A stretch of 4,631 bases of DNA from a virus (Monodnaviria; Loebvirae; Hofneiviricota; Faserviricetes; Tubulavirales): the IMG/VR virus record IMGVR_UViG_2667527953_000022; one strand, given 5' to 3'. Shown here piece by piece: positions 1 through 4,631 of this stretch; the stretch's first letter is position 1; each line of letters starts with the position of its first letter. Made by a program: the position numbers and the translations under genes. Below the pieces are notes generated by a model, which was not told the DNA's origin, searched no databases, and worked only from the letters and a program-made list of their open reading frames with translations.

Positions 1-482
1 TGCCCGTTACCCGTATCAACCCAGACAACATCACCAAGAGAATATGAAAAGTCCTTAATTACCGGACGGGAAAGACAATTTTCTTCGGTAACCGGCTTAT
101 TATATTCAGGTGTCAAATCCCCCTCACCACCCTGAAAAGCAAGGGTGCAGGCTGTCCACTTTTGCTTGTCTGAATCCCAGACTTTATATGCTGACCACCG
201 GGCACGGACAAAAGACCCGACAGTCGAAGGTGCATTAACAGGCGTGGAAAGTGGCACACCACAATAATGAATTATTCCGGAACATGCGTCATAATTGCCC
301 GAACCACAGAAAAGATGACCGGCCGCCCTGGCTAATTTAATCGACGTCCCCGCGTCCGAATAATCTGTCCTGCAGGATGAATGGCCTGCACACTGAACAA
401 GTGCATCCGGATTTTCTTTCTCTTCAGCGAAAGAAAACGAGGAAAAGAACAAAAACAGAAGCGGAATAATAAAGTGAATCAA
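1..482 (-). CDS. Putative secreted Cys-rich minor coat / adsorption protein (g3p-like by position); N-terminal 160 codons only, 3' end beyond the left window edge
   Basis: Minus-strand frame is open for 160 codons from TTG at 482..480 to the window edge, checked triplet by triplet. AGGAG at 495..491 lies 8 nt upstream of the TTG. No in-frame ATG exists; the alternative GTG at 491..489 overlaps the SD. N-terminus LIHFIIPLLFLFFSSFSFA/EEK looks like a signal peptide, and the following ~140 aa contain 8 Cys. It sits directly after the coat gene and its terminator, where g3p lies in Ff-type phages. Absent from the ORF track because it runs off the edge. Confidence 0.5.
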   Translation of the reverse strand, partial: MIHFIIPLLFLFFSSFSFAEEKENPDALVQCAGHSSCRTDYSDAGTSIKLARAAGHLFCGSGNYDACSGIIHYCGVPLSTPVNAPSTVGSFVRARWSAYKVWDSDKQKWTACTLAFQGGEGDLTPEYNKPVTEENCLSRPVIKDFSYSLGDVVWVDTGNG

Positions 483-1573: not shown

Positions 1574-3815
<2,242 letters not shown>

Positions 3816-3948: not shown

Positions 3949-4149
3949 ATGGCTGAAAAAAGAAAGAGTTATAACGTGCCAAACGAGAAGTATCTAAAGC
4001 TAGAAAGATTAGCTATTGATGCAAGTCAAAAGATAGGAAGGAGCATAAAATGGACCGAAGTACTGTCTTACATGATAGATCACTACGCAAAAGACGCAGC
4101 AATAGATATGGTAAGTCAGGAAGAACTTAAGAAAAAAAAGGCAATGTGA
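3949..4149 (+). CDS. Arc/Mnt-like ribbon-helix-helix transcriptional regulator, 66 aa (putative repressor)
   Basis: ATG at 3949 with AAGGGGG 7 nt upstream. Layout is a short N-terminal strand (KSYNV), helix A (NEKYLKLERLAIDASQKI), a G-R-S loop, then helix B (IKWTEVLSYMIDHY), matching the RHH fold and the N-G-R-S loop of Arc. Divergent from the rep operon, as repressors are in several inoviruses. AT-rich codon usage (ATA, AGG). Confidence 0.6.
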   Translation: MAEKRKSYNVPNEKYLKLERLAIDASQKIGRSIKWTEVLSYMIDHYAKDAAIDMVSQEELKKKKAM

Positions 4150-4212: not shown

Positions 4213-4368
4213 ATGCAGATAACCAGTGACTTAATCCTTGACCTGCTGATAAAGCATTTCGTTGTTGGCAGCATCACAGGCATGACAATATTCAGCCTGA
4301 TAACGCTTGTCCCACCGTTGGTGATGACCATACACAAAAAACTAAGTAAGGACACTGAAATCCTTTAA
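4213..4368 (+). CDS. Hypothetical 51-aa hydrophobic peptide (not in the supplied ORF track)
   Basis: ATG at 4213 with AAGGAA 2 to 5 nt upstream, TAA at 4366..4368. Translation: MQITSDLILDLLIKHFVVGSITGMTIFSLITLVPPLVMTIHKKLSKDTEIL, one predicted TM segment then a basic tail. Shares the ATA-rich codon bias of the adjacent regulator. Overlapped by antisense ORFs, so the coding strand is uncertain. Confidence 0.25.
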   Translation: MQITSDLILDLLIKHFVVGSITGMTIFSLITLVPPLVMTIHKKLSKDTEIL

Positions 4369-4374
4369 GGTTCA

Positions 4375-4466
4375 GTGCGCACAATGACGTTATGTATAAA
4401 AAGGCCGCTGCGGTGGAGAGTATCGCAGCGGCCTTTTCAACATAACGCGTGTCACATTGTGCGTAC
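4375..4466. other. Putative XerC/D-dependent attP: two inverted dif-like sites forming an imperfect 92-nt forked hairpin (CTXphi type)
   Basis: Site A (4375..4401) is GTGCGCACAATG-ACG-TTATGTATAAAA. The reverse complement of site B (4434..4466) is GTACGCACAATG-TGACACGCG-TTATGTTGAAAA. The left arms match 11 of 12 and the right arms 10 of 12, with central regions of 3 nt versus 9 nt. The arms resemble E. coli dif (GGTGCGCATAA / TTATGTTAAAT). No integrase is encoded in the window. Confidence 0.5.
4398..4437. terminator. Perfect 10-bp GC-rich hairpin flanked by A- and T-tracts; bidirectional rho-independent terminator and apex of the attP hairpin
   Basis: AAAAA (4398..4402), GGCCGCTGCG (4403..4412), 11-nt loop gtggagagtat, CGCAGCGGCC (4424..4433), TTTT (4434..4437). 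The T-tract follows the stem on both strands. It lies between the plus-strand regulator unit and the minus-strand ORF ending at 4487. Confidence 0.55.
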
Positions 4467-4486
4467 TATTATTGTTATTCACTGTG

Positions 4487-4631
4487 TTAACGAATAAATA
4501 ATGTAATTCCTGACGGATTTTTACAAATAGTACTGATTTCTTTTATATCAGTGTTACTACCTTCTACACTTTGACCCGAACCATTTGCTTGTTTGGCAAG
4601 AATGGAATCACCAAAATTTTTTGAAATAACG
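4487..4631 (-). CDS. C-terminal 47 codons of a minus-strand ORF entering from the right edge (unknown product)
   Basis: Minus-strand frame open from the window edge to TAA at 4489..4487; C-terminus ...KNPSGITLFIR. The other two minus frames stop within about 25 codons. It ends 20 nt before the attP/terminator hairpin. Short, in AT-rich sequence, so only weakly supported. Confidence 0.3.
   Translation of the reverse strand, partial: VISKNFGDSILAKQANGSGQSVEGSNTDIKEISTICKNPSGITLFIR

Follow-up and report, generated by a model that had tools for sequence, protein, structure and literature searches.

The locus analysed here raised the question of how a filamentous prophage in which no integrase gene was found became joined to the DNA beside it. 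The window (the whole stretch of 4631 nucleotides that was analysed) was one complete 4631-bp contig, CDQU01001495.1 of the draft assembly GCA_000936775.1, and consisted mostly of a filamentous (inovirus) prophage with its phage genes on the minus strand (Table 1). Near one end of it, an earlier note on the sequence had described two inverted dif-like sites and proposed that they form a folded attP through which host XerCD integrates the phage at dif. In its main points that proposal holds. We consider it very likely that the element is an integrase-less E. coli filamentous phage with a CTX-type hairpin attP on its (+) strand, which integrates by XerC exchange. This mechanism is already known for CTXphi, CUS-1 and Ypf, and the window phage is a further member of the group; recurrent integration in plasmid Xer sites is its least-described aspect.

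Pfam and PHROG scans found no recombinase domain in any ORF of the window, nor in the remaining genes of a full 8.8-kb unit of 98% identity, which were those for a secretin, Zot, a pIII-like protein and small proteins. The earlier claim that the window lacks an integrase was borne out and extends to this full-length relative. The replication initiator shared about 30% identity with RstA of CTXphi and with Rep of fs2 and VFJ (tblastn), and since its gene (1574..3574) defines the phage (+) strand, that strand is the minus strand of the window. Two plus-strand ORFs, of 51 and 66 aa, both lay at the place that rstR has in CTXphi. The 66-aa ORF was also present in phages with a different (Rep_trans) replication module. 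The 51-aa ORF had no match in the Pfam and PHROG scans, and an ORF with a similar N-terminal motif occupied the same position at L005 and L015 when the sequences were compared by eye. In the 90%-identity clusters of the window proteins, every member listed came from E. coli, and no Yersinia proteins were among those listed (15 of 40, of up to 2063). The replication module was present in 40 of 5426 complete E. coli genomes, and a blastn search of the phage collection with the whole window gave no match.

Table 1. Features of the window and of the att region, with site coordinates based on canonical 11-nt arms.
Feature	Sequence or size	Position	Strand	Remark
pIII-like gene, 5' part		3-482	-	
Small coat-like ORFs		within the window	-	
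141-aa protein	141 aa	1118-1543	-	
Rolling-circle replication initiator, Phage_GPA family	666 aa	1574..3574	-	Pfam/PHROG scans
Opposite-strand ORF (relative to the phage genes), in the rstR position of CTXphi	66 aa	3949..4149	+	phrog_2503
Hydrophobic ORF, stop 6 nt before site A	51 aa	4213..4368	+	
Site A, XerC-like arm	AGTGCGCACAA	4374..4384	+	9/11 vs E. coli dif arm GGTGCGCATAA
Site A, central region	TGACG, 5 nt	4385..4389	+	
Site A, XerD-like arm, then AA	TTATGTATAAA (4390-4400), AA	4390..4402	+	8/11 vs dif TTATGTTAAAT
GC stem-loop, hairpin apex	GGCCGCTGCG / 11-nt loop / CGCAGCGGCC	4403..4433	.	perfect 10-bp stem
Site B, XerD-like arm, phage-derived	TTATGTTGAAA(A)	4434..4445 (arm 4445-4435)	-	9/11 vs dif
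Site B, central region	TGTGACACGCG, 11 nt	4446..4456	-	
XerC arm, from the target plasmid Xer site	AGTACGCACAA	4457..4467	-	plasmid homology starts exactly at 4457
Plasmid DNA; a prepilin-type gene (type IV pilus), 3' part only, occupies about 4487 to the end of the window		4468..4631	-	
(+)-strand att region carrying the phage arm	TCAGTGCGCATAATGTGACACGCG...CATTGTGCGCACTGA, 98 nt			

The two dif-like sites were present as described, with site A (4374-4400, spacer of 5 nt) and site B (4435-4467, minus strand, spacer of 11 nt) in inverted orientation. Their phage-derived arms matched those of E. coli dif at 8/11 to 9/11 positions, in agreement with the XerC and XerD likeness ascribed to them. 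Single arms with up to three mismatches were not rare in the window and arise by chance, so the arms alone are weak evidence. The complete two-site arrangement was encountered again, in 57 distinct variants, among other genomes and viral contigs. Xer spacers usually have 6 nt in chromosomal dif and 6–8 nt in plasmid sites, and both spacers fell outside 6–8 nt in all 35 aligned variants (5 nt; 10–11 nt), which supports the earlier view that neither site is fit for XerCD as duplex DNA. The entire dif 28-mer, searched with up to three mismatches, had no match in the window or in L001 because the spacers are non-canonical. Within the spacer of site B, TGT corresponded to the first three nucleotides of the dif centre TGTATA. 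The XerC-like arm of site A was identical in window-type, L002-type and L005-type phages and was never swapped during integration. At the GC stem-loop between the sites, an inverted-repeat search returned perfect arms of 14 nt (I11).

Homology of the window to E. coli chromosomes ended at about 4463-4472. From 4457 onward, the window was 96% identical to the E. coli plasmids CP091397.1 and NZ_CP053385.1, and in complete E. coli genomes all 13 of 13 matches of this flank were on plasmids. At the point where the window joins, both plasmids had an empty 28-bp Xer core, AGTGCGCACAA-GATAGA-TTATGTTAAAT. Since plasmid homology begins at 4457 and the site is empty in these relatives, the XerC arm of site B belongs to the plasmid; the arm that the phage itself carries, AGTGCGCATAA, is different at 2 positions. 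The alignment places the crossover between prophage and plasmid at 4456|4457, the XerC cleavage position, and by the same comparison site B in the window reads as a hybrid junction, with the centre and XerD arm of the phage and the XerC arm of the target. What had been taken for an attP is instead the end of an integrated prophage. The left arms of the two sites are indeed alike, but the likeness is one between a phage arm and the arm of a plasmid Xer site (4457-4467). Likewise, integration by XerCD at host dif holds for relatives of the phage, but the window copy is in a plasmid Xer site next to the prepilin gene.

A joint of this kind could in principle be a chimera of short-read assembly, with the phage really located at chromosomal dif. 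The contig came from an assembly with more than 1490 contigs, and the exact window junction was not present in complete E. coli genomes or PLSDB plasmids. The sequence shared by phage and plasmid at the joint amounts to only about 8 nt, however, and AGTACGCACAA is distinct from both the arm of the phage and that of E. coli dif. In addition, phage and plasmid are joined exactly where XerC cleaves, and fully assembled, independent plasmids carry such prophages at Xer sites for which the empty state is known. We therefore regard an assembly artefact as very improbable and treat the window as a plasmid-borne prophage end. A scan of viral sequences for regenerated sites found none. A metagenome search gave one match, a TGTATA site with a flank unlike any replicon compared. 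L177 has a similar arm, AGTACGCATAA, and was rejected since its flank is unrelated.

Related prophages at other targets had junctions of the same form. In E. coli TD225-C4, the window phage (96% identity) occupied the dif locus, with two copies in tandem about 70 bp from hipA. The host-side junction there consisted of GGTGCGCATAA, which is the exact XerC arm of dif, followed by TGTGACACGCG-TTATGTTGAAAA. Related copies at dif with a hybrid junction had been named in the earlier note as something to look for, and this junction, with a dif arm and a phage centre, is one. The copy-to-copy junction of the array carried cAGTGCGCATAA, which identifies cAGTGCGCATAA as the phage's own arm. E. coli prophages with another replication module and the same att region ended at their far side in cAGTGCGCATAA-TGTATA-TTATGTTAAAT (arm also given as AGTGCGCATAA). 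Judged by its sequence, AGTGCGCATAA-TGTATA-TTATGTTAAAT is a dif site regenerated with the phage arm.

Plasmids were targets in several further cases. On the Citrobacter youngae IncFIB/IncHI1B plasmid pCY-CTXM-15, a window-type phage formed an array of at least three copies, with the arm AGTACGCATAA at the near junction and AGTGCGCATAA-TGTACG-TTATGTTAAAT at the far end. The empty IncHI1B site predicted from these ends, AGTACGCATAA-TGTACG-TTATGTTAAAT, was uninterrupted in 103 related plasmids, and 590 plasmids of the IncHI1B type gave a split match. A 316-kb Klebsiella plasmid carried a different inovirus with an IKe-like gene set, also in tandem, at the same backbone site as in pCY-CTXM-15, and the site B arm of this inovirus was AGTGCGCATAA. 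The plasmid targets, large plasmids of resistance and virulence, comprised IncFIB/IncHI1B resistance plasmids of Klebsiella and Citrobacter, IncF-type plasmids of E. coli and the type IV pilus plasmid of the window. Tandem arrays were found at L001, L002-L004, L006/L007, L013/L192 and L016/L193, which is consistent with production of genomes by rolling-circle replication.

At all targets, the arm to the left of TGT came from the target, and the sequence from TGT inward came from the phage. This indicates that exchange takes place where XerC cleaves, on the strand with the order 5'-XerC arm-centre-XerD arm-3', and the crossover was on the XerC side in every case. The natural junctions in this way pin the crossover to one phosphodiester position. 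In inoviruses, the packaged (+) strand has the sense of the phage genes. The exchanged strand has the same sense as the genes for Rep and coat proteins and is therefore the packaged (+) strand. TGT is common to the centres of dif (TGTATA) and of the IncHI1B site (TGTACG), whereas the closest plasmid relatives of the window have GATAGA. By our analysis, a GATAGA centre without TGT homology appears to conflict with the compatibility rule of CTXphi.

Folding of the region as DNA gave a strong hairpin. Positions 4365-4476 had a free energy of -35.2 kcal/mol as the plus strand and -35.7 kcal/mol as the minus strand, compared with means of -13.6 and -12.4 kcal/mol for the respective shuffled sequences (z about -9.3; 0 of 200 as good). 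Folding of both strands, as suggested earlier, did not separate the strands of the window itself, which were nearly equal. Reconstructed free attP sequences favoured the (+) strand, and all seven of seven folded better by 1.2–5.1 kcal/mol as (+) than as (-) strand. In silico, the (+)-strand fold joined the arms of both sites into XerC and XerD half-sites. In the free attP folds, the XerC arm and TG were paired and the next 5–6 nt of site B bulged out. Further inward, the last three nucleotides of the site B spacer paired with CGT of site A, followed by the XerD arms and the GC stem; the complement of the site A centre TGACG was in this manner paired with TG and with those last three nucleotides. 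The folded stem that joins the arms, as envisaged in the earlier note, was recovered, but its centre is not a two-sided bubble: the middle 6 nt of site B form a bulge on one strand only, and the 5 nt opposite are all paired.

Conservation of this structure was examined in att regions gathered by pattern scans, from which 35 distinct sequences from at least three phage backbones were aligned on the (+) strand. The site B XerD arm was fixed by the search pattern, and its constancy among these variants is built in. The site A spacer had 5 nt in all variants, as TGACG, TGGCG or TGACA, and the XerD-like arm of site A occurred in three main forms. The site B spacer of 10–11 nt consisted of an invariant TGT, 4–5 hypervariable bases and an end of (A/G/T)CG or GCA. 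A hypervariable bulge beside an invariant TGT seems to fit the rule known from CTXphi, by which only the XerC-adjacent bases pair with the target. Standard pairs made up 97.0% of the hairpin cells in the 35 variants, as opposed to 23–51% when the 3' partners were slid. Changes on both sides were seen at four pairs, and the covariation score exceeded that of all 500 shuffles. A compensatory change from GCG/ACG to GCA/ACA was present in L116 and L075, and in L116 the pair adjoining the XerD arm had changed from G-C to A-T. The sequences were closely related, and the covariation comprised few independent events. The GC stem was 99.7% paired over the 35 variants, with G.T pairs and one double change. 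The window-type phage had two mismatches in the XerD half of the stem (T.T and G.A), and in many phages of group 4, position 4 of the XerC arm was mismatched (G.A).

The transition-type non-Watson–Crick cells were distributed asymmetrically between the strands. In the phage-derived part, there were 34 G.T and 0 A.C cells on the (+) strand, and in phage-type XerC arms 10 G.T and 0 A.C cells. The (+)-strand G.T cells were spread over 7 pair positions.

These data point to selection on the hairpin itself and bear on whether it is needed at all. As in VGJphi, site B alone might serve as a duplex attP in the replicative form, with XerC acting first and site A being a bystander or relic. XerC exchange on a duplex site B would give identical junctions, VGJ-type elements likewise use XerC plus replication, and the Rep of the window was about 29% identical to those of fs2 and VFJ, of which fs2 is listed as a VGJ-type member. 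The spacer of site B, however, had 10–11 bp in every variant, compared with 7 bp in the VGJ attP and 6–8 bp in Xer sites. Site A with its 5-nt spacer was kept in all variants and backbones and co-varied with site B, and G.T mismatches confined to the (+) strand argue against a duplex attP of the VGJphi type. VGJ-type prophages, moreover, are flanked by two functional sites and excise, whereas one flank here is non-canonical. We consider use of a duplex site B unlikely in view of the length of its spacer, of a site A that is retained throughout and co-varies, and of the asymmetry between strands. The idea that site A is a relic of another element was tried and rejected, as site A is accompanied by the loop and site B at tandem junctions as well as in all backbones. 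A folded (+)-strand attP is the reading that we retain.

The structure might also be mainly a terminator, a packaging signal or a minus-strand origin, with an incidental or secondary likeness to dif. T-runs flank the GC stem on either side and transcription units converge on it, its apex is conserved beyond the needs of a mere spacer, and the G.T asymmetry of the (+) strand would suit any single-strand function. The hairpin is also located in the intergenic region that follows the secretin gene, where the packaging signal of Ff and IKe is described to lie. None of this would account for arms that match the XerC/XerD consensus positions at both sites, for a crossover at the exact XerC cleavage position in four different targets, or for intact dif and plasmid sites regenerated at the far end, and we regard this explanation as highly improbable. 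Terminator, packaging or origin roles may well be compatible with the attP without replacing it. The T-runs on both strands make it probable that the GC stem-loop additionally terminates transcription from both directions where the phage units converge. A terminator scan did not call it because the 11-nt loop exceeds the 8-nt loop limit of that scan. An Rfam search gave only a spurious miRNA-hairpin match far below threshold, and a tRNA search found none.

For the hairpin attP, the following course of integration is proposed. In the packaged (+) strand, site B and the complement of site A would anneal around the GC stem-loop, and the XerC-like arm of site A would provide the bottom strand of the XerC half-site. 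The resulting dif-like duplex would contain an 11-bp XerC half-site, the paired bases T and G, the 6-nt bulge of site B, three further pairs and the XerD half-site. Host XerC would then cleave the strand of site B where the arm meets TGT and exchange it with the target Xer site's top strand, and replication would afterwards fix the insertion. We infer that single-stranded DNA is the substrate, that XerC alone is catalytic and that replication resolves the intermediate. One end of the product would be a dead hybrid of target XerC arm, 11-nt spacer and phage XerD arm, with the intact site A about 50 nt away, and a functional site would be regenerated at the opposite end of the prophage. The prophage would be unable to excise because neither of its sites is expected to work as duplex DNA, and new genomes would arise by rolling-circle replication from tandem arrays.

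The closest parallel is CTXphi. Its attP(+) is described as a forked hairpin of attP1 and attP2 with spacers of 12 and 7 nt (Val et al. 2005, as presented in PMC3089051 and PMC4246890), and a XerC-only exchange yields one functional dif and two dead sites according to the accounts in PMC3089051 and PMC4246890. In the El Tor type as given there, attP1 is AGTGCGTATTA-TGTGGCGCGGCA-TTATGTTGAGG and attP2 is AATGCGTATTA-TACGCCA-TTATGTTACGG. The CTXphi-style architecture proposed in the earlier note was confirmed in that the long and the short inverted site parallel attP1 and attP2: both phages have an inverted pair with a long and a short spacer, of 12 and 7 nt in CTXphi and of 11 (or 10) and 5 nt here. 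Site B resembles attP1 by its long spacer, by the TGTG that follows its XerC arm and by a XerD arm containing TTATGTTGA, and site A resembles attP2. In both phages, the late genes end on one side of the att region and a small regulator gene, transcribed divergently, lies on the other; both have an RstA-like replication protein and no integrase, and their prophages are found in tandem. The crossover is on the XerC side, with one functional site regenerated and two dead sites left, in both as well. Unlike in CTXphi, where about 90 nt and a forked stem separate the sites, the sites here were 31 nt apart with a single GC stem-loop, and the centre of the fold was a one-sided bulge of 6 nt instead of a bubble. 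The hosts also differ, being E. coli and related Enterobacteriaceae, and the targets include plasmid Xer sites. The mechanism of the cholera-toxin phage is in this way extended to filamentous prophages of E. coli, Klebsiella and Citrobacter.

Among enterobacterial phages, reviews treat CUS-1phi and YpfPhi as CTX-type relatives with attP features for integration of single-stranded DNA, and for Ypf they report a XerC/XerD site pair in inverted orientation. As far as these descriptions go, CUS-1phi of E. coli O18:K1:H7 and YpfPhi of Yersinia pestis resemble the window phage in being enterobacterial, in integrating in tandem at dif with one intact dif reconstituted, in the inverted XerC/XerD pair, and in a gene order with an opposite-strand regulator beside attL. 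No K1 reference strain was recognised by name among the 40 complete E. coli genomes with the window Rep module. The window phage probably represents a lineage other than CUS-1phi and YpfPhi with the same kind of att region.

UPphi, described from E. coli, Klebsiella, Salmonella, Citrobacter and Yersinia as dif-integrated inoviruses in tandem (Shapiro and Putonti 2020, PMC7307601), is likewise similar. The paper reports only a dif 'copy' and partial repeats some 15 bases long, and mentions neither a hairpin nor an attP. The replication and structural modules of the window differ from those of UPphi. The att variants of group 4 (site A arm TTATGCTAAAGA) were on IKe-like backbones with annotated attachment protein, G7P and major coat protein, and may be UPphi-like. 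The att cassette was common to at least three unrelated inovirus backbones and is mobile between them.

[quoted passage not shown] The VGJ type has a single duplex attP with a 7-bp centre and is reversible, whereas the window phage has two sites, with spacers of 5 and 11 nt, and its hybrid end keeps the 11-nt spacer. The TLC type has a XerD arm that is degenerate, exchanges strands first on the XerD side and uses a dedicated activation factor; the XerD arm of the window phage matched dif at 9/11 positions and the crossover was on the XerC side in all targets. Like cer of ColE1 and psi of pSC101, AGTGCGCACAA-GATAGA-TTATGTTAAAT and AGTACGCATAA-TGTACG-TTATGTTAAAT are 28-bp XerC/XerD cores of plasmids, and the centre of the psi core likewise begins with GAT. 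Unlike cer and psi in their role in multimer resolution, the plasmid cores here serve as integration targets of phages.

It is conceivable, though we hold this only tentatively, that large plasmids are regularly lysogenised by enterobacterial CTX-type phages, with the Xer cores of these plasmids as points of entry, and that the window copy entered a psi-like GATAGA site. Plasmid-borne prophages could then travel by conjugation, and by occupying the dimer-resolution site of the plasmid they might disturb its resolution. If the target was GATAGA, either E. coli would follow a looser overlap-homology rule than V. cholerae or a different pathway would exist. A literature search found no paper on such phages integrating in plasmid Xer sites. 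Of these results, the use of plasmid targets, the movement of the att cassette between phage backbones and a possible departure from the overlap-homology rule are the ones that merit follow-up.

For annotation, an inverted dif-like pair with spacers of 5 nt and 10–11 nt around a GC stem-loop offers a signature that finds prophage ends missed by integrase-based tools. A pattern scan of genome contigs that included the GC stem was unspecific, and the matches listed were mostly GC-rich terminators of Actinobacteria. Among the matches listed, a dif-like half-site was present beside the stem in at least 11 loci.

The replication module of these phages reassorts with their regulator/att module, since an identical copy of the 66-aa protein (window 3949-4149) sits beside a Rep_trans initiator. 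The contig index listed identical copies for 711 blocks. Each of the 24 contigs that were read, L002-L011 among them, had the protein in a prophage with a 398-aa Rep_trans initiator rather than a GPA-type Rep. The phage at locus L005 had a Rep_trans and not a GPA replication module. In this phage, the window and the phage at locus L015, a short hydrophobic ORF (46-57 aa) stopped a few bases before site A. The three ORFs carried an N-terminal motif resembling ILDLL(I/M)K, and searches of Pfam and PHROG gave no match. This ORF may be part of a mobile att cassette.

At least 18 genomes of E. coli had the same Rep and structural module but lacked both the small ORFs and the dif-like att region. 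Homology to the window in these genomes ended at window position 3568-3571. The arrangement was inspected at one locus, L195, a degraded prophage located between hcxB and a truncated dinG and not at dif. An IS110 family transposase gene adjoined the Rep start at this locus, and the non-coding DNA beside it had no match in Rfam. Either the integration module was swapped at L195, or an insertion sequence was inserted and a deletion followed.

Coordinates of the features compared across the window and related loci (L-numbers are loci from other genomes, plasmids or viral contigs)
Feature	Position	Source or remark
Region with IS110 family RNA-guided transposase gene	L195 10579-11544	E. coli AST240 chromosome, NZ_AP043633.1; gene adjoins Rep start
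Site B broken after TTTTCAACAT	L032 ~512-540; L059 ~6385-6416; L102 ~5190-5222; L143 ~3079-3100	
Loose likeness to the sequence beyond the break	L016 10090-10193	
Hydrophobic ORF before site A	window 4213-4368; L005 ~10545-10683; L015 8831-9004	
Empty IncFIB/IncHI1B Xer site, example	L196 248-275	NZ_CP034681.1
Empty plasmid site with centre GATAGA	L012 3098-3125; L191 1484-1511	compared with window 4446-4467
Segment matched in plasmids	L005 10337-10448	between 66-aa ORF and att region
2012-bp E. coli plasmids with segment match, examples		NZ_AP041817.1; NZ_OZ547098.1
XerC arms of site A		alignment A1 (att region), columns 88-98

In several Enterobacterales loci, site B was broken off directly after TTTTCAACAT, within the XerD arm, and continued into sequence such as GGACATTTCTAA(T/C)GAGCCAG. 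A loose likeness to the latter was observed in L016, in the stretch that separates the junction from a gene annotated as the transposase of ISKpn21 (ISNCY family). Given these breaks and this likeness, an insertion sequence may target such dif-like sites on their XerD side.

The reconstructed empty IncFIB/IncHI1B Xer site had matches at 859 places in 590 plasmids, mostly of Klebsiella. Because the site was in one piece in only 103 of these plasmids, many of them may carry an insertion there. Two different inoviruses were seen inserted at this plasmid site. The GATAGA centre of the empty site in the relatives of the window's plasmid (L012, L191) had no homology to the phage TGT, and the window's XerC arm, AGTACGCACAA, was one base off the arm of these relatives.

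The closest chromosomal copies of the window phage (98% identity; homology matches H2/H35 and H3/H34) were those of E. coli strains 600029 and 100416. Both strains also had plasmids bearing a type IV pilus prepilin gene with 85% identity to window 4487-4631, where this gene forms the flank of the prophage. The receptor of CTXphi is TCP; by analogy, a plasmid-encoded type IV pilus could be the receptor of the window phage.

For the dif arms of other Enterobacterales, the list by Carnoy and Roten was used. The site A XerC arm in L026, L166 and L182, GGTTCGCATAA, was the Pectobacterium (Erwinia) dif arm. That of L156, GGTACGCACAA, was one base off AGTACGCATAA, an arm shared by Sodalis dif and the IncHI1B plasmid site. 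Judging from these arm sequences, site A arms resembling foreign dif arms may record past hosts or may reflect tolerated variation of the XerC arm.

A segment of approximately 110-260 nt of the L005-type phage was matched at 88-96% identity by 2012-bp E. coli plasmids and by several large plasmids.
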